Assembly: GCA_963675595.2 (NCBI GenBank)
Contig: CAXXLZ010000001.1
Location: forward strand, 1,088,001 to 1,152,000
DNA from: Thermodesulfobacteriota bacterium
GTDB lineage: Bacteria > Desulfobacterota > Desulfarculia > JACQYL01
DNA length: 64,000 nt
Direction: 5' to 3'
Each line of letters starts with the position of its first letter. The stretch's first letter is position 1. This document shows, in pieces, positions 4,185 through 16,647 of the stretch. The position numbers were made by a program, and so were the translations under genes. The notes below the pieces were generated by a model, which had not been told where the DNA came from, did no database searches, and worked only from the letters and a program-made list of their open reading frames with translations.

Positions 4185-7100
4185 TTAAGGTAACCCATTG
4201 ATCTCCCGTTTGATTCGCTCCACAAGGATCCGAGCATTCATTTTTTCGGCCAGGGATAGGGACTTGTTCAGATCATTCATGGCGAGCTTGGGACGGCTTG
4301 CCTTCAACACTTTACCTCGTACGTGGAGCGCCATTGCCTCATGCTTCTTTGCACCCATTTTCTTGGCCGAACGAAAGGCTTTTCCGGCAAGAGAAAGAGC
4401 CTTTTCCCTTTCTCCCGTCTTTCGGCGGAGCTCGGCCAGAACAATGAAAAGTCTGGTTTTGTATCGCCATAGGGTATAAGCGATACGTTGTCGGCTGACC
4501 TCCTCCCGGGACTGCCGAAGGATCTTTTCGGCGTCATCCAGCCTGTCCATTTGAATCATGTTCTCGCCGATATTGATTCGGGCGTTGTTGATGGTTTCCG
4601 GGTCTCCGGTCGGCAGGGCTTCCTCCAGGGATTGTCTATTGAATTCCAGCGCCGTCTCAACGTCCCCCTTCTCCGCGAGAACCCACCCTAGTGTGTTCAA
4701 AAGTCTCGGCCGCCAGAACGGATCGCCTCCCGCTTCCAGATGACCCAACCCGGCCCTTAGGGTCTTTTCCGCCTCTTCCAACCGACCCAAAGCGCCGAGG
4801 ATAAGCCCCTGTCTGAAATGAAGCATGACCTCGAAATAGGCGCTGTTCAGCTTCCGGTTGAGTCTGGCGAGCTCCTTGCTGAAGGCGAGAGCTTCGTCGA
4901 AGTCGCCGGTCCAGTTATAGTATTGTATGAGAGAGGCCAGACTCCATGCCCTCCCTTCCGGATCTTTGACCTCATCGGCGAGATCCAGGGTCTCGATAAG
5001 AAGCGGTTTGGCCTTCTTCAGTCTCCCCAGGACGGAGTAAAGTTGTCCGAGGAAGCTGCTTGCCTTCTGATGAATCTCTGAGATGCCCAGGGCTTTGCTT
5101 TGCTCTACGGCTTTGATCAGATAATGCTCGGAGGATCGAGGCCGATGGCTATAAAAGGCGACCCAGCCCAGCCGGAACAGGGCCTCCAGTTCCACCTCGC
5201 GATTTTCCTGTTTTTTGGCCAGCGAAAGCATCTTCTGAAAAGCGAGACGGCTTTTCTCCATTTCCCTCACACAGAAGTGCATGCTGCCGATCCATTTGTA
5301 GAGCAGCATCCCCTCTTTGCCCGTCTGGTCCAAATTTCCTTTTTTCAGGATATCCAATGCCAAGTTGAAGCAGGTCAGCGCCTCCCGACATGAAAAGGAT
5401 TGCCTCGCTCGGTGGCCGGCATCCAAGGTATAGGATAAGGCCTTGGGCCACTGTTCGGCGTGATAGTAATGAAAGGACAAGAAACCCAACTGATTATGAA
5501 GGTTGTCGTGATGGAGTTCTTCAACAGTCTCAGCCACGATACGGTGATAGGTCTTGCGGGACCTATGGAGCAGGCTGTGGTAGGTGACTTGCTGCATCAT
5601 CTGATGCCGGAACGCGTACCGATTTCCCGAATCGGGAGATATTCGATCAATAATTCCCTCGTCCTCGAGAACGGCCAGCCCGTGTTTCATGTTTGCTTCA
5701 TCTTCAACGAGACGTTTCAGAACATCATGGGAGAAGACGCTGCCGATAACGGACGCCAACCGGCAGACCCGTTTTGCCGCCTCGGGAAGGGAATCCAGCC
5801 GGGCGGCCAGCACATCACGAATCGTCTCAGGAATCGCCATATCCTCCAATTCGAGTCGCAGACGGCATTGTTGATCATCGCAGACGACCATTCTTTGCCG
5901 GTTAAGATGCGTTCCCATCTCCACTAAGAAAAGTGGGTTACCTCCCGCACTGGAAATGATCTTCTCCGATGTTGAGGGTTTGAGACGATCCGCCCCAAGG
6001 GCGGCGTTGAATATCTTCAGGGCGTCCTCCGCCCGAAACGGAGCGGGACGAATCACCGAATCAGGCTCGATGGGGCACCAGCGAGTAGATGTCGTCCTCC
6101 CGGAAAGGATTATCAACAGGGGGCCCTGTTGCGTTGATTGATGCAAAAAACCGAAGAATTCCTTTGTTGTTGCATCTACCCACTGCATGTCATCCACCGC
6201 CATGACGATGGGCCTGATGGACATGCATGACCAAAGGAGATCCCGGATTGCCAAAAAAATATCGCGCTTCTCTCCTTCCCTGATCAGTTCGGAACGATCT
6301 TCCTCAGCCCGGATTCGACCAAAAAGAGAAAGGATTCGTTCGAGTTTCGGGAGGAGTTCTTTATCTCTGATCTTCTCTCGGATTCTGCTTCTGATCTCTC
6401 CCAATCCGTCTCTATCCGAAAATTGAAAATAGTGCTTGAACATCTGAGAAAACGGATGAAAAGCCGCAGCTTCGCCATAAGGCTGACAACGACCGGCCAA
6501 GTAGAATACGCTTTCGTGGTCGAGCGAACTTCTGAACTGCTCCAGAAGTCTCGTTTTTCCAATACCCGCCTCTCCTTCCAGGGCTATCACACAAAGCGAG
6601 CCCTTCTGAACCGAATGAAACGCCTTGTCAAGAAGCGCCATCTCCGTCTGCCGGTTGATGAAAGGAATCGGTATCGTTGATGGTTTTACTCGGGAATCGA
6701 TCTCTCTTTTTTCACTCAAAAGGGAAAAGGCCGCTACGATGTTTTCTTTGCCTTTGACCTCGAAGTCCCCAATCTTTCGAAACCGAAAGAATGGTTGGGC
6801 CGCATCTCTGATGGTTTGCGAAACCCATATTTTTCCAGGGGTGGCGATGGATTCCAAGCGCGCCGCCAAGTTGGTCGTGTCTCCCAACGCCGTGTAATCA
6901 AGACGCAAATTGTCTCCGATGGAAGCAACAACCACCGACCCTGTGTTAATCCCAATGCGCATCTTAAAAGAAATGCCGTAGAGTTTGCTCATCTCAGATT
7001 CATATTCTCGCAGGCGGGCTTGAATTCTGAGAGCAACATGGCAGGCGCGTCTGGTGTGATCTTCGTAGGCGATGGGGGCGCCGAAGAGAGCCATAACCCC

Positions 7101-7517
7101 ATCCCCCGTGTATTGATTAATTGTGCCGCCGGCGCCGTGAATCTCTTCACCCAGAATCTCAAAGCAGCCTTCCATGAGGGAATGGACATCTTCGGGGTCA
7201 AGTGCTTCTGCGATGGAGGTGAAATTGGCGACATCGGCAAACAGCACGGTTACGTGTTTCCTTTCGCCTTCCAGAGGACTGTGCCCTTTAAGGACTTTTT
7301 CCACCAGGAATGGAGGGGTGTAGTCAGAGGACGTACGTTTGGCGTAGGTGGGGATATCCGTTCCTTGGTTCAGCGAGCTTCCGCATTGACCACAGAACTT
7401 GAAGTCCAAGGGATTAGCGGCACCACATTTCGGACACTGCAGAGCCAGAGAAGCACCACAACGCCGACAAAATCTCGTGCCTTCCGGATTATTGGATCGG
7501 CAGCTAGGGCATTTCAT
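4185..7517 (-). CDS. Double zinc-ribbon + class III nucleotidyl cyclase + STAND/AAA ATPase + TPR protein
   Basis: Four CxxC pairs at the N-terminus, VTVLFADV...GDGVMALFG...GDTTNLAARLE, GEAGIGKT Walker A, MAVDDMQWVD, GGNPLF, TPR-like helical C-terminus. Confidence 0.9.
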   Translation of the reverse strand: MKCPSCRSNNPEGTRFCRRCGASLALQCPKCGAANPLDFKFCGQCGSSLNQGTDIPTYAKRTSSDYTPPFLVEKVLKGHSPLEGERKHVTVLFADVANFTSIAEALDPEDVHSLMEGCFEILGEEIHGAGGTINQYTGDGVMALFGAPIAYEDHTRRACHVALRIQARLREYESEMSKLYGISFKMRIGINTGSVVVASIGDNLRLDYTALGDTTNLAARLESIATPGKIWVSQTIRDAAQPFFRFRKIGDFEVKGKENIVAAFSLLSEKREIDSRVKPSTIPIPFINRQTEMALLDKAFHSVQKGSLCVIALEGEAGIGKTRLLEQFRSSLDHESVFYLAGRCQPYGEAAAFHPFSQMFKHYFQFSDRDGLGEIRSRIREKIRDKELLPKLERILSLFGRIRAEEDRSELIREGEKRDIFLAIRDLLWSCMSIRPIVMAVDDMQWVDATTKEFFGFLHQSTQQGPLLIILSGRTTSTRWCPIEPDSVIRPAPFRAEDALKIFNAALGADRLKPSTSEKIISSAGGNPLFLVEMGTHLNRQRMVVCDDQQCRLRLELEDMAIPETIRDVLAARLDSLPEAAKRVCRLASVIGSVFSHDVLKRLVEDEANMKHGLAVLEDEGIIDRISPDSGNRYAFRHQMMQQVTYHSLLHRSRKTYHRIVAETVEELHHDNLHNQLGFLSFHYYHAEQWPKALSYTLDAGHRARQSFSCREALTCFNLALDILKKGNLDQTGKEGMLLYKWIGSMHFCVREMEKSRLAFQKMLSLAKKQENREVELEALFRLGWVAFYSHRPRSSEHYLIKAVEQSKALGISEIHQKASSFLGQLYSVLGRLKKAKPLLIETLDLADEVKDPEGRAWSLASLIQYYNWTGDFDEALAFSKELARLNRKLNSAYFEVMLHFRQGLILGALGRLEEAEKTLRAGLGHLEAGGDPFWRPRLLNTLGWVLAEKGDVETALEFNRQSLEEALPTGDPETINNARINIGENMIQMDRLDDAEKILRQSREEVSRQRIAYTLWRYKTRLFIVLAELRRKTGEREKALSLAGKAFRSAKKMGAKKHEAMALHVRGKVLKASRPKLAMNDLNKSLSLAEKMNARILVERIKREINGLP

Positions 7518-12087: not shown

Positions 12088-13385
12088 TGTCAAGCCCCCA
12101 GTTTTTGGTCCAGGAGTTATGAGAGTTTTATCATGACTCGCGGTTTTCCATCCCCGGCCCTTGGGGCCTCGGCGAAGCCGAGCTGAGCGAGGCGGAGTCG
12201 AGGCCCCAAGGGCTCGCCGCGAACTGGGCCGGGGTCATGTAATTCAATGCACTGTGCGGTCTTTCCTCGTTATAGGCTTTCCGCCATTTGGCGGCCAGAG
12301 TCTGCGCTTCCTTGATGTTGTTGAAAATTTCCATGTTCAAGAATTCATCCCGAAAACGGCTGTTGAAACTTTCCACGTACCCGTTCTGCCAAGGGGCTCC
12401 CGGCTCGACGAAAAGGGTTCCCACTCCCAGGTCTTTCAGCCAGTTTCTCACCTTTTGGGCTATAAATTCGGGACCGTTATCCGATCGAATGCCCGTTGGA
12501 ACTCCCCGCTCGCCCATCAATCGGCTCAGCTCGTTCAAAACGTCTTCACCCGTAATGGAGCGGTTGATCCTCAGGGCCAGGTTTTCCCGAGTAAACTCGT
12601 CGACAATGGCCAAGCACTTGAACTGACGGCCGTCGACCAAGCGGTCATGAATGAAATCCAACGTCCAGACATCATTTGCAAAAGCCGCCTTACGCTTGTT
12701 GCACGCATTGGCATCAACTCCCAGGAAGCGTTTCTTCTTGGCTTTTCGAGGTACCTTGAATCCTTCCTCTTTCCAAAGTCTATGAATTCGCTTGTAGTTT
12801 ACCGCCCACCCCGCATCACGCAGCAGCCGAGTGATCCTACGGCATCCAAAACGGGGATGTTCTCCAACCAACCGGTGAAGAGCCTTGATCAGTTCCACCT
12901 CATCGTCCCGTTCCTTCGGCTCATAACGTTGGGTGGATCGGTGTTGACCGGCTACGCGGCAGGCCCGACGCTCTGAAGCGGCATGTTCACTTCGAACATA
13001 ATCAACCGCTTTCCTACGACGCGCCGGGCTTAGAAGTTTCCCTCCGCAAGATCCTTCAGCATTGCCTTGTCCAACATCAGATCGGCGACCAGCTTTTTTA
13101 AGCGTGCATTTTCCTTTTCCAGTTCTTTTAGCCGTTTGGCCTCCTCAGCCTTCATCCCCCCATACTGGTTTCGCCACCGGTGGTACGTCGCCTCGCTCAC
13201 CTCCAGCGATTGGCAAACCTGCGCTATCGTCTGCCCTGCCGTCAGACGACGGTCCGCGTCTTCAAGTTTCCGGATGATTTGCTCCGCGCTGTGTCTCTTT
13301 CTCTTGGCCATGCAAAAAGTCTCCTTCCGTTCTTTGGGCATTCAGACTCTCATTATACATGGACCAATTATCGGGGGGCATTCCA
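12088..13385 (-). mobile_element. Complete IS3-family (IS407 group-like) insertion sequence, 1298 bp
   Basis: TG...CA ends with imperfect IRs (TGTCAAGCCCCCAGTTTTTGGTCCAGG / TGGAATGCCCCCCGATAATTGGTCCATG), a 4-bp target duplication CGGA (12084-12087 and 13386-13389), and orfA/orfB organisation. Confidence 0.93.
12131..13311 (-). CDS. IS3 transposase OrfAB (orfA 13030-13311 joined to orfB by -1 frameshift)
   Basis: orfA HTH ends ...EGNF*. Slippery G_GGA_AAC at 13036-13042 on the minus strand. The -1 frame continues LLSPARRRKAV...SERRAC into the DDE domain (WTLDF, SDNGPEF, NGYVESFNSRFRDE). Confidence 0.9.
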
Positions 13386-13593
13386 CGGAGACTAATGTTT
13401 AACAAAGACTTCCTAGGTGCATGTTTTGATCATTAAATAAAAACCTTTCATCCCGTTCTACGCCTGGAGCAGGGTTAAGATGGTCATAAACGGCCTTTAG
13501 CAATGGCTGACTTACTACTCCGGCGAATACATGGGTATTTGTCCTACTTTCAAGTTGGTCCGACGACTTAGCAGCAAAACTACTTTAATTTAA

Positions 13594-15027
13594 ATGGATG
13601 ATGACATGAGACGAGCATACTTAGTTTTGATACTTGTTTGTGTATGGTCTTTGTCAATATGTATAACCTATGCCGGTACTAAAAAGTCTGTTCATAAATC
13701 TGAAGATCCACACAGATCGATGAAAGGCCCCTATCCGGATGGAGTATCCGTCACAAAGGCCTGTCTACAATGTCACGAGGACAAGGCAAAGGAGATACTA
13801 ACGACATCTCATTGGCTTTGGAAAGGACCAAGTCCCAAGGTAGTAGGCCATGAACATAGGATGGATTTGGGAAAGCGGAATATCATAAACAGCTATTGAA
13901 TTGGTATCGGATCCAACTGGTGCAGTTGCACCAGCTGCCATATAGGATACGGTTGGAAGGACGCTTCTTTTGACTTCTCCGACACCTCAAAGATCGATTG
14001 TCTGATTTGCCACGACACGACGGGAAACTATCAGAAAGCACCCAAGGGTTGCGGTAAGGAGAAGGAATGGTTGAACCTGCCCGAGATCGCAAGGAATGTG
14101 GGCATCCCTTCAAGGGCCAATTGCGGAAAGTGCCATTTCTATGGGGGGGGAGGGGATGCTATCAAGCACGGAGCACTTGATTCCACCTTTGAGCAACCGG
14201 ACAGAAAAACTGATGTTCACATGGGAGGGATGGACTTTTCCTGTCAGTATTGCCACCTGGAGAATGGACACAGGATAGCCGGCGGCTGCACAACCTGTGC
14301 AGTGAGTGAAGGCACGGTTTCCTGCTTGGACTGCCACGATGAAAGGCCCCATTATGACGAAAATCCCCTGCTGGCGAAATTAAACGACCACGTCGATTCC
14401 ATCAGCTGTCAGACCTGTCATATCCCGACTTTTGCAAAGAACAAACCAACCCTCATGTGCTGGGACTGGTCAAAGGCGGGGAAAGAAATGGAACCATGCC
14501 CGGTGGATCCACATGCGATTACGATTTGCTCCAAAAAGAAAGGCCTTTTGATAAAGAAGCAAAATCTTACTCCGGTCTATTCCTGGTACAACGGAAAACA
14601 TCATCGATATTTAGCCGGCGATAAGGTAAATCTCAATGGCACTACCTATTTAAACAAGCCGGATGGAAACATTCGGGATCCGAATTCCAAAATAACACCC
14701 TACAAAATATATGAAGGTATTCAACCTGCCGACGACCAATTTGGATATCTCATTGTCCCTAAATTGTGGGGTGGTTTCTGGCGCCATTTTGATTGGAACC
14801 GGGCTGCGGAGGAGGGAATGAATTCGGTGAATCTCAAATATAGCGGCAAGATCAGATTCGTGAAGACGATCATGCATTGGGCAATCAACCATGGAGTGGC
14901 GCCGAAAGAACAAGCGCTGTCGTGTACCGATTGTCACCGTCCGGACGGTGTCATGGACTTCAAGGCCTTGGGCTATAAACGAGACCCGGTGGTTATCGGA
15001 GGGCGGTTTAAGAATGCGCGGCCATAA
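13594..15027 (+). CDS. Octaheme tetrathionate-reductase(OTR)-family cytochrome c with in-frame TGA (probable selenocysteine)
   Basis: Track ORFs 13594-13899 and 14071-15027 are in the same frame, separated only by TGA 13897-13899. Read-through gives 477 aa with a signal peptide and 8 CxxCH motifs (CLQCH, CTSCH, CLICH, CGKCH, CQYCH, CLDCH, CQTCH, CTDCH). OTR motifs include LGKRNIINSY-U, CHFYGGGGDAIKHG, WDWSKAG and INHGVAPK. Confidence 0.88.
13917..13934 (+). promoter_or_regulatory. Putative bacterial SECIS hairpin
   Basis: Stem CTGGTGC/GCACCAG (7 bp) with apical loop AGTT starting 25 nt after the UGA; G followed by U in the loop. Confidence 0.72.
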
Positions 15028-15205
15028 CATCATATCTACCAACCTAACCCGGTTTAACGCCTATGAAAAAAAGAGGCTTGAGAGTCATTTATCCAACAGC
15101 CCTAAAGAGTTAGCTGGAATCAAACAATTGCTCAAGTGACGGCCTGCTTGGAGGGCAAACGGTTTGCGACTTGAAACTAATGTAACGAAGATGGAGGCGA
15201 CAGGA

Positions 15206-16138
15206 ATGGTCGGCTCGAACGATCGGGACAGAAGGGCCACGCTTGAGCGAACGCCCCTTTTCGCGGGGCTGAATCCGGAGCAGCTCTCCGAATTTGCCCG
15301 GGTGGCGCACGAAACCAGTGCGCCGGCGGGGTCCATGATCTTCGAGCAGGGAGACGCGGGTGACGGCTTCTATATTATTAGGTCGGGAAAGGTCCAGGTC
15401 TTCAGAAGAGGGGAGCGAGGCATTGAGACCCAGCTTTCCATCCTGGGTCCGAGGGAGAGCTTTGGTGAGATGGCCCTTCTGACGGGCAACTCCCGTTCCG
15501 CTTGTGTTCGGGCCATGGAAGAGACTCATTTGATTGTGCTGTCCAAGAATGAGTTCGATCGCATACTGAAGGATCATCCCGATGCGTCGTTGTCTTTTGT
15601 AAAACAAATTTCCGAGTGGCTTCTTCGCGATGAGGCCCATTTACAGCAAGCGACGGAACGTATCATGCATCCCTCCCGGATTTCGTGGTCGGACTTCGCC
15701 TTCATCGCGGGTGTCGTCCTTCTCTGCGGTCTCATCTTCAACACAGCTAACCCCTCCGGAATTCGATGGATTCCCAAAGTCTACTCCCATGAATCCATAT
15801 CCTTCGTCGCCGCCGCTGAGGCAATAGCGGCTCGGGCTGAGGGAGCCGTGATCGTGGACGCCCGTCCCTCGAACTTCTACGAAGAAAGGCATATAGAGGG
15901 TGCGATCAGTCTTCCGCTTCCGGTGTTCGACTTCGTCTACATGATGAAATTCGGTGAAATGCGCAAAAACAAGCCCATCATTGTCTATGGACGAAACATC
16001 AGCCGTCGTTATGATTCAGAGGTCGCCTACCGTCTGGTGCTGAGAGGTCACCGGGATGTATCAATCTTAGAGAATGGTGTTTTCGCTTGGGAAAAGCAGG
16101 AGGACGCCATGGAAGCACAGGAGAATTCCGAGTCATGA
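15206..16138 (+). CDS. cNMP-binding domain + TM helix + rhodanese-like domain fusion
   Basis: IFEQGDAGDGFYII...FGEMALL...RSACVRA cNMP motif, then a TM segment, then VDARP...HIEGAISLP...IIVYG...LENGVFAW rhodanese fold. Confidence 0.8.
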   Translation: MVGSNDRDRRATLERTPLFAGLNPEQLSEFARVAHETSAPAGSMIFEQGDAGDGFYIIRSGKVQVFRRGERGIETQLSILGPRESFGEMALLTGNSRSACVRAMEETHLIVLSKNEFDRILKDHPDASLSFVKQISEWLLRDEAHLQQATERIMHPSRISWSDFAFIAGVVLLCGLIFNTANPSGIRWIPKVYSHESISFVAAAEAIAARAEGAVIVDARPSNFYEERHIEGAISLPLPVFDFVYMMKFGEMRKNKPIIVYGRNISRRYDSEVAYRLVLRGHRDVSILENGVFAWEKQEDAMEAQENSES

Positions 16139-16647
16139 AACGTCTCATGGACCTACTGAAACGTCTTGTAGCCAGTCCACACTTGGCCTTGGTGCTCCGG
16201 CTTTACATCGGTGTGGTCTTCGTTTACGCCAGCATGAGCAAGATTCCCCACCCGGCGGAATTTGCCGAAAATCTGATCGCATACAGGCTCTTCCCGTGGT
16301 GGTCCATCAACATCCTAGCCGTATTCGTGCCGTGGCTCGAGTTGATCTGCGGGCTTTTCCTCGTAATCGGGTTGGCCTCCAGGGCGGCGTCTTTCACCAT
16401 TGGCGCCATGCTTCTTGGATTCACCGTGGCCATTGTGATCAATCTGCTACGGGGTTCCAACATCGGTTGCGGATGCTTTGAAGCCGTTGGTGGACAAATC
16501 GGATGGGGGAAAGTGATCCGGGATTTGACTTGGCTGGTGATGACGCTCCAAGTATTCTTCTTTGATCGGATCCTGTTGCTTCGAAGGGGTGGGTTGAGCC
16601 TGAAACCCAGCTCGATGATCGAGGCCTGGGAGGGGGATCGGGTGTGA
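16135..16647 (+). CDS. MauE/DoxX family membrane protein
   Basis: LRLYIGVVFVYASMSKI..P..F, PWLELICG, GCGCF motif. ATGA overlap with the upstream gene. Confidence 0.85.
   Translation: MKRLMDLLKRLVASPHLALVLRLYIGVVFVYASMSKIPHPAEFAENLIAYRLFPWWSINILAVFVPWLELICGLFLVIGLASRAASFTIGAMLLGFTVAIVINLLRGSNIGCGCFEAVGGQIGWGKVIRDLTWLVMTLQVFFFDRILLLRRGGLSLKPSSMIEAWEGDRV

Follow-up and report, generated by a model that had tools for sequence, protein, structure and literature searches.

Does the interrupted frame at 13594-15027 of this DNA belong to a gene broken by a nonsense mutation, to two separate proteins, or to a single selenoprotein? The whole stretch that was analysed, called the window below, comprises 64,000 nucleotides (nt) from a Thermodesulfobacteriota bacterium. 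On its plus strand, positions 13594-15027 form a single frame whose sole interruption is a TGA at 13897-13899. We consider it probable, at roughly 0.9, that this is a real selenoprotein gene, predicted to encode a periplasmic octaheme cytochrome c of the octaheme tetrathionate reductase (OTR) family, and that it was split by gene calling. This reading is carried by the recurrence of the TGA at one alignment column in relatives and by the hairpin that accompanies it there. Homologs with TGA at this column are called Sec-type (for selenocysteine, Sec), and those with a cysteine codon Cys-type.

Reading frame and family membership

As called with translation table 11, the frame gives two open reading frames (ORFs), 13594-13899 (101 aa) and 14071-15027 (318 aa, TTG start). 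When the TGA is read through, 13594-15027 yields a product of 477 aa with selenocysteine (U) at residue 102 and with eight CxxCH heme motifs, at residues 57, 112, 136, 177, 217, 244, 272 and 444. This count requires decoding of the TGA, as CTSCH (residues 112-116, nt 13927-13941) and CLICH (residues 136-140, nt 13999-14013) lie outside both ORFs. Stopping at the UGA costs these two heme motifs and deprives the larger fragment of its signal peptide, so that the gene appears broken.

The read-through protein scored 510.1 bits on TIGR04315, the NCBIfam model of the tetrathionate-reductase-family octaheme cytochromes (cut-off 375 bits), over model positions 6-440 of 440, and this was the sole match in the NCBIfam scan at E <= 0.01. 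A C-terminal Cytochrome_cB domain and multiheme domains were detected in the Pfam scan. The sole solved relative was 1sp3_A, the OTR of Shewanella oneidensis (E 4e-132, residues 38-466, 50% identity). Counting of chain positions on 1sp3_A pairs K94 with K56, U102 with C64, C112-H116 with C74-H78, D188 with D150 and K191 with K153; U102 is located eight residues after K94 and ten residues ahead of the heme-2 CxxCH. According to the passage of PMC3769277 that deals with OTR, heme 2 of this protein is ligated by C74xxC77H78 and Lys56, by which the residue numbering of the alignment is fixed. By its alignment with Lys56, K94 is a putative heme-2 ligand. In the window gene, the conserved non-heme cysteine of the Cys64 column is replaced by the TGA; a selenocysteine there would be a chemically conservative variant and is no bar to family membership. 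Two cytochrome c assembly proteins scored above their Pfam cut-offs in the same genome.

The preliminary description of this locus had read the two ORFs as one frame split only by the TGA, with read-through restoring eight CxxCH motifs, two of them present in neither ORF. It had also claimed a GK lysine eight residues ahead of the TGA, a retained D-x-x-K, and a UGA placed on Cys64 of OTR. Translation, motif positions and alignment bear out each of these statements. The features of the gene are the following:

13594..15027, plus strand: complete coding sequence (CDS), 477 aa, of a putative Sec-containing octaheme cytochrome c of the OTR family (single-TGA frame, TIGR04315, 1sp3_A match over residues 38-466)
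13594..13674, plus strand: probable signal peptide of the Sec (secretion) type, MDDDMRRAYLVLILVCVWSLSICITYA, recognised by eye from basic residues followed by a hydrophobic stretch
13606, plus strand: candidate alternative start ATG
13762..13776, plus strand: heme motif 1, CLQCH
13873..13875, plus strand: AAG codon of K94, whose counterpart on 1sp3_A, Lys56, is the axial heme-2 ligand in OTR (ligand role from the OTR passage of PMC3769277)
13897..13899, plus strand: UGA, read as selenocysteine U102, equivalent to Cys64 of OTR (from the alignment and recurrence in relatives)
13918..13935, plus strand: putative hairpin of the selenocysteine insertion sequence (SECIS) type, class A, with the 7-bp stem CUGGUGC/GCACCAG and the loop AGUU
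13921..13923, plus strand: TGC codon of C110, two residues ahead of the heme-2 motif, in the 5' arm of the hairpin
13927..13941, plus strand: heme motif 2, CTSCH, which in OTR binds the catalytic heme; the 3' arm of the hairpin is made up of the first three codons of this motif
13999..14013, plus strand: heme motif 3, CLICH
14122..14136, plus strand: heme motif 4, CGKCH
14155..14166, plus strand: D188-A-I-K191, equivalent to Asp150 and Lys153 of OTR on the 1sp3_A alignment
14242..14256, plus strand: heme motif 5, CQYCH
14323..14337, plus strand: heme motif 6, CLDCH
14407..14421, plus strand: heme motif 7, CQTCH
14923..14937, plus strand: heme motif 8, CTDCH

Recurrence of the TGA and of the hairpin among relatives

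Among 61 kin genomes, one other OTR homolog (L032) contained an in-frame TGA, and this was located at the identical column. In a collection of species genomes, 81 rows covered the column (76 Cys, 4 TGA, 1 Thr); the four nearest relatives from that collection (L054-L057, 60-65% identity) had TGA there in all four cases. Targeted scans, queried with truncated fragments, revealed TGA at the column in 26 of 87 rows. We also sampled the phylum by drawing 401 genomes evenly and accepting matches at E <= 1e-60. Matches were present in 62 of these genomes, and 30 of the 70 matches contained an in-frame TGA. Apart from the window gene, 29 such matches were retrieved; in 28 of them the TGA falls on the Cys64 column, L224 being the exception with its TGA elsewhere. 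With the window gene included, Sec-type genes thus accounted for 29 of the 70 matches and occurred in 27 of the 62 genomes. Overall, 218 distinct rows covered the Cys64 column, with Cys in 157, TGA in 59, Thr in one and Phe in one; as this set was deliberately enriched for TGA, these proportions are not frequencies. The 59 TGA rows carry no other stops.

Several homologs departed from this pattern in their own ways. The match of L223 (G260:C3:5171508-5172782) includes two in-frame TGAs, of which one falls on the Cys64 column. In L224 (G123:C3:5239-6525), this column is occupied by Cys, and the only TGA lies elsewhere. Rare homologs possess neither Cys nor Sec there, namely Phe in L044/L052 (one and the same place, G044:C278) and Thr in L113. 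The window genome itself harbours two further OTR paralogs, L024 (G000:C2:2381589-2382806, 48% identity) and L025 (G000:C2:1338198-1339463, 36% identity), both stop-free and of the Cys type.

Traces of the TGA were visible in stored proteins as well. Among the best 120 matches in the large protein collection, 38 are 300-392 aa long and cover at most 79% of the query. We retrieved 26 such fragments, and 24 of them begin 0-3 residues past the Sec column, the remaining two further on. Starts just past the column are explained by a gene caller halting at the TGA. The window gene is stored in this collection as the 318-aa fragment. The same starts could be taken at face value, with the UGA as a true stop that separates a 101-aa monoheme protein from a heptaheme or hexaheme protein initiated just past the stop or at TTG 14071. 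Indeed, ATG or GTG directly follows the TGA in many relatives and gene callers start there. In the window, however, the codon after the TGA is ATT, and a start at TTG 14071 drops two CxxCH motifs. Heme attachment during cytochrome c maturation takes place in the periplasm, to which a product started past the TGA, devoid of a signal peptide, would have no access. Moreover, K94, the lysine ligand, would be made on a different polypeptide from the heme that it ligates (C112-H116). We give such a split gene hardly any credence.

As for sequencing error, which the preliminary description had listed among the possible refutations, contigs of the runs X1, X3, X7 and X8 were compared with the window; among the nine runs found, none was listed as RNA. 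Run X3, which comes from another study and bears another organism label, contains a 23,949-nt contig covering 13400-14103. Relative to the window, this contig has 4 substitutions, plus 2 small insertions close to the start codon, and none of these changes is at 13897-13899. The TGA, kept in the assembly of this separate study, is not a sequencing error. Run X1 is identical to the window throughout and may be its source. The two insertions in run X3 are a 1-nt insertion just 5' of the first ATG (13592-13596) and an in-frame GAT in the MDDD stretch. The N-terminal acidic stretch is thus variable, and translation may in fact begin at the second ATG (13606).

The preliminary description had also proposed that the genome be checked for the selenocysteine machinery. 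All its components were found in the same 6.8-Mb genome: selA (621 bits), selB (404 bits), selD (386 bits) and tRNA-Sec (77 bits, ARAGORN anticodon tca). The selD gene (L010, G000:C2:3335545-3336462) contains one in-frame TGA of its own, and a 7-bp stem with the loop GUGAU begins 12 nt downstream of this UGA. SelD of this genome is itself a selenoprotein, and its element, used here as an in-genome positive control, is an example of a working SECIS. The hairpin of the OTR-family gene is built alike, with 7 bp, an AGUU loop and a distance of 18 nt.

This hairpin, CTGGTGC-AGTT-GCACCAG, occupies 13918-13935. Its stem begins 18 nt and its loop 25 nt past the UGA, in agreement with the preliminary description. 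The bacterial SECIS model that Zhang and Gladyshev put forward in 2005 is said to require a loop 16-37 nt past the UGA. No match was obtained in the Rfam scan of 13700-14100 at E <= 10, Rfam seemingly having no usable bacterial SECIS model, which makes this negative uninformative. In the interval equivalent to that of the hairpin, a stem of at least 7 bp was present in 6/6 Sec-type rows versus 6/97 Cys-type rows.

The hairpins of Sec-type genes fell into two classes. Class A, which includes the window gene, encodes S-N-W-C-x-C-x-x-C-H and has the stem CUGGUGC/GCACCAG with the loop AGUU, AGGU or GGGU. Class B (L032 type) encodes S-N-E-A-R-C-T-S-C-H and has the stem GCAACGA/UCGUUGC with the loop GGC, the stem beginning 13 nt past the UGA. 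One or the other exact core motif was present in 57 of the 59 Sec-type rows and in none of the 157 Cys-type rows; the two Sec-type rows without a core motif (L141 and L235) are both class A variants. Relatives thus share the TGA together with the hairpin; close orthologs that all have Cys and lack a conserved hairpin had been named in the preliminary description as a refuting outcome. With this specificity, the two motifs could serve as simple markers for re-annotation. Further Sec-type OTR sequences were seen on loose contig ends of the runs X1, X3, X7 and X8 (equivalent to approximately 13912-13977), with TGA in class A or class B hairpin context, which indicates that multiple Sec-type OTR genes coexist in those samples.

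Conservation of the stems was examined in two ways: i) by base pairing, and ii) by synonymous codon usage. As for i), 95.8% of cells pair in 17 distinct class A sequences, compared with 16-53% when the partner arm is slid by 1-3 columns. Compensatory changes were represented by C-G to U-A (L139/L134) and G-C to A-U (L141), and two more pairs wobble; the U-A variant was seen again in L222 and L223. As for ii), codon columns with an invariant, degenerate amino acid were compared between the stem and the rest of the gene. In 11 class B sequences, a single codon is used at 5/5 stem columns versus 4/181 elsewhere (Fisher 7e-8). In class A, this holds for 1/3 stem columns versus 0/122 outside, the two varying columns being the compensated and the wobble cases. 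Since both column sets come from the same sequences, kinship acts equally on each. In addition, the 3' arm codons TGC ACC AGC occur in 16 of 86 Cys-type genes with CTSCH, versus 5/5 of the first class A rows. The SECIS reading of the hairpin, already put forward in the preliminary description, is thus supported by its Sec-only conservation, by frozen synonymous sites and by the selD control.

These data bear on two further explanations. A pseudogene, arisen through a TGC/TGT to TGA nonsense mutation in a Cys-type OTR gene and perhaps tied to an IS3 insertion, would be in line with the IS3-family element directly upstream, with the two stop-free Cys-type paralogs in the genome and with gene callers giving fragments only. 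Against it, 59 distinct rows, drawn from numerous genomes and metagenomes and free of further stops, share the TGA at this column, and the hairpin motif is coupled to the TGA. The eight heme motifs, K94 and D188/K191 are all intact, and the selenocysteine machinery is present. A pseudogene is therefore extremely improbable. Alternatively, the UGA could be read through without selenium, by insertion of Cys, Trp or a near-cognate residue, or could serve mainly as a regulatory stop that depends on selenium; the mature enzyme would then mostly be of the Cys or Trp type. Cys and Sec do alternate at this column within the family, and some selenoproteins reportedly receive Cys at UGA when selenium is scarce. 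However, the genome devotes a full system to Sec, including a Sec-containing SelD, the geometry of the hairpin matches that of the selD element, and the synonymous sites are frozen, as predicted for a SelB-binding element. Read-through of this kind thus seems very unlikely, and we retain a selenoprotein gene as the favoured interpretation.

Two Sec-type clades and their genomic surroundings

A FastTree tree was built from 182 complete rows, leaving out rows with an incomplete CDS, with fewer than 45 upstream codons or with N. In this tree, classes A and B form separate clades, with supports of 100 and 99, respectively. Class B nests among Cys-type rows, including the window genome's own paralog L024, and the distribution of Sec and Cys on this unrooted tree requires two changes, which may be gains or losses of Sec. 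A single origin of all Sec-type genes was also considered and was rejected by the approximately unbiased test (p 1.5e-5, 48 rows), the group having been named after the first tree was seen.

The two classes differ in an additional cysteine. Cys at +8 from the Sec column (C110, aligned with Pro72 of OTR) was present in 39/59 Sec-type rows versus 0/157 Cys-type rows, and it is specific to class A Sec-type proteins, class B being without it. Within the hairpin, the TGC codon of C110 is the innermost part of the 5' arm, where its pairing partner is the codon of the first heme-2 Cys. C110 may thus be imposed by the RNA, as an arm that complements TGC ACC AG spells N-W-C in frame. It may also be a resolving cysteine for a selenenyl-sulfide. 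As a separate observation, class B proteins (L032, L172, L173, L179, L184, L191 and others) are extended at the N-terminus, and this extension contributes four additional CxxCH motifs.

Directly upstream of the window gene, on the minus strand, lies an IS3-family element, with orfA (HTH_Tnp_1) at 13030-13341 and orfB (rve/rve_3) at 12131-12898. Downstream, on the plus strand, a protein with cNMP-binding and rhodanese domains and a hydrophobic stretch is encoded at 15164-16138, and a MauE/DoxX membrane protein at 16087-16647 overlaps it. By eye, the rhodanese active-site loop of the former contains no cysteine. Farther away, positions 4185-7517 on the minus strand encode a 1110-aa signalling protein with a double zinc ribbon, an adenylate/guanylate cyclase domain, an AAA_16 ATPase and TPR repeats.

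We surveyed the neighbours of 32 Sec-type loci (19 of class A and 13 of class B), with Pfam run on one example per blastp cluster. An NrfD-like membrane subunit is encoded upstream on the same strand in 9/13 class B loci. This, together with the N-terminal extension of class B, suggests a quinol-linked respiratory module. A DsrE/DsrF-like sulfur-carrier gene directly follows 3 of the 32 Sec-type genes (two of class A and one of class B, for example L134 1619-1999). Adjacent to class A genes, a PAS-sigma54 activator was found in 4/19 loci and a family-5 solute-binding protein in 5/19. Both the NrfD and the DsrE associations are in keeping with a periplasmic enzyme that reduces sulfur compounds and is fed by quinol, these being features of relatives and not of the window gene.

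Several points weigh against the interpretation given above. Selenium incorporation and a full-length product are deduced here from sequence alone. As for the hairpin, folding of the 64-nt stretch by itself gave z = -0.82, with 38 of 200 shuffles folding at least as well; the lone fold is unremarkable, and the significance of the hairpin rests on comparison among relatives. In this comparison, the covariation of class A amounts to 3 cells in 2 pairs, and the class B stem is invariant in 12 sequences, so that no covariation is available there. Part of the conservation reflects protein constraint, since the stem overlies codons of conserved residues. The relatives are moreover related by descent; row counts therefore overstate independence, and effectively two lineages are compared. 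As for the context, about 190-250 nt lie between the IS3 element and the start, and the element may have separated the gene from its native promoter or taken the place of its native upstream region. No electron-donor partner or sulfur-handling operon adjoins the gene in the window. The window neighbours (adenylate cyclase-TPR, FG-GAP, IS3 orfA/orfB, cNMP-rhodanese, MauE, cohesin) were absent from the flanks of L054-L057, L032, L024, L066 and L076. As for the active site, Cys64, Asp150 and Lys153 reportedly line the substrate pocket in the OTR structure published in 2004, a point for which no confirmation was found in open papers. Our literature search found no paper pairing 'Cys64' with 'tetrathionate', and the passages on OTR in PMC7096707 and PMC8840924 are silent on the substrate pocket. 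As class B lacks C110, a Sec-Cys pair is not general to Sec-type OTRs. Finally, nitrite and hydroxylamine also serve OTR as in vitro substrates (Atkinson 2007, as cited in passages of PMC13510729 and PMC3769277), which makes a nitrogen substrate possible.

Proposed mechanism and comparison with known systems

Taking the selenoprotein as the basis, the following mechanism can be proposed. The hairpin, located inside the CDS 18 nt 3' of UGA codon 102, would recruit SelB with Sec-tRNA(Sec), a step that draws on established knowledge of SelB-dependent decoding. In the mature protein, the selenolate of U102 would act as a nucleophile on an S-S, S-Se or Se-O bond of a substrate bound at heme 2. Electrons would be supplied by the Lys-ligated heme 2, to which the other seven hemes would deliver them. 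In class A, C110 may, speculatively, resolve a selenenyl-sulfide intermediate. The proposal of a selenolate nucleophile is based on the alternation of Sec and Cys at the column and on the precedent of MccSep (GSU2937-2936, ExtKL family NF040886), a pentaheme selenoprotein of Geobacter sulfurreducens which, in the passages of PMC13510729 devoted to it, is a polysulfide reductase with additional activity on selenite. Tetrathionate, polysulfide, thiosulfate or selenite would be our best guess for the substrate, with about even odds of being right.

The same selenoprotein could instead be mainly a reductase of nitrite, hydroxylamine or another nitrogen oxide, in which Sec would be protective or tuning. 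This would accord with the in vitro activities of Shewanella OTR given above and with its fold family, which includes NrfA and HAO according to the passage of PMC8840924 on this family. However, alternation of Sec and Cys usually marks a redox-active nucleophile, as put in the part of PMC13188914 that treats this point, and MccSep, the only multiheme selenoenzyme to have been characterised, acts on polysulfide and selenite and showed no activity with nitrite or nitrate in the account of PMC13510729. The NrfD-like and DsrE-like neighbours in relatives also argue against it. We regard a nitrogen-oxide reductase as unlikely, although far from negligible, and favour the sulfur or selenium compounds.

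Put together, the observations allow a broader and rather doubtful scenario. Sec-type OTRs would be a second widespread family of multiheme selenoenzymes, in which Sec arose or was lost at least twice, with different SECIS elements made from the codons ahead of CxxCH. In class A, the hairpin arm would fix C110, and the resulting Sec-Cys-heme site would cleave S-S or Se-S bonds via a selenenyl-sulfide, converging on the mechanism that has been proposed for MccSep. A constraint on the RNA would in this way have created a catalytic residue. We offer this scenario only tentatively.

The physiological role of the OTR family and the role of its conserved active-site Cys are unsettled, the enzyme being able to turn over tetrathionate, nitrite and hydroxylamine in vitro. 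Replacement of this Cys by Sec in a large share of Desulfobacterota homologs would be a strong natural hint of a redox nucleophile, and it points to sulfur or selenium substrates. If the interpretation is true, OTR would follow MccSep (2026) as the second family of multiheme selenoenzymes. As these genes are often stored N-truncated, without the signal peptide and at least one heme motif, the numbers of hemes and the respiratory inventories attributed to sulfate reducers and related bacteria are too low. In the literature searched, which included few subscription journals, we found no biochemistry of a Sec-type OTR, nor a description of Sec on the Cys64 column by a Lys-ligated heme, of two SECIS classes, of a class-specific extra Cys or of a high Sec-type share in the phylum.

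Among known elements, the hairpin resembles the bacterial SECIS of the E. coli fdhF type in its position within the CDS 3' of the UGA, its 7-bp stem and its small G/U loop. Measured from the UGA, the loop starts at 25 nt in class A and at about 19-20 nt in class B, both inside the range given above for the bacterial model. The hairpin differs in that no Rfam model matched it and in that the two OTR classes use unrelated stems for what is in each case a putative SelB site.

Among known proteins, OTR itself (SO4144, PDB 1SP3) shares with the window protein TIGR04315, the eight CxxCH motifs, Lys56, D150/K153 and the spacing from the lysine to Cys or Sec. The window protein differs in having Sec for Cys64 and C110 for Pro72, and in the SECIS-type hairpin within the codons of N108-S114. 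In Table 1 of a 2026 review (PMC13188914), TIGR04315 is listed as a GenBank-annotated ('GA') selenoprotein family, and it is therefore already on record as such at the level of annotation. The example in this table entry, WP_331457571.1, has '-' as its Sec motif, no literature reference and no function. It belongs to the same family model as the window protein and has likewise one Sec. The earlier view of the gene as hidden and liable to be called a pseudogene thus stands in part: the window gene is indeed stored as a 318-aa fragment and many relatives as N-truncated proteins of 300-392 aa, but the family as such had already been annotated.

MccSep is the closest functional analogue. As far as the MccSep passages of PMC13510729 go, it too is a multiheme c-type cytochrome of the periplasm and has a single Sec close to catalytic heme 2, and its gene was split at the UGA in older annotation. 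That gene also has a SECIS-like stem-loop at most 30 nt from the UGA, and Sec-type and Cys-type homologs occur across Desulfobacterota. MccSep differs in having five hemes instead of eight and a His/Cys-ligated active heme instead of the Lys-ligated heme 2 of the OTR type. Its Sec is located at residue 325 in another sequence context, and its family model NF040886 was not matched by the window protein in the NCBIfam scan. The window protein is thus an analogue of MccSep and not a member of its family.

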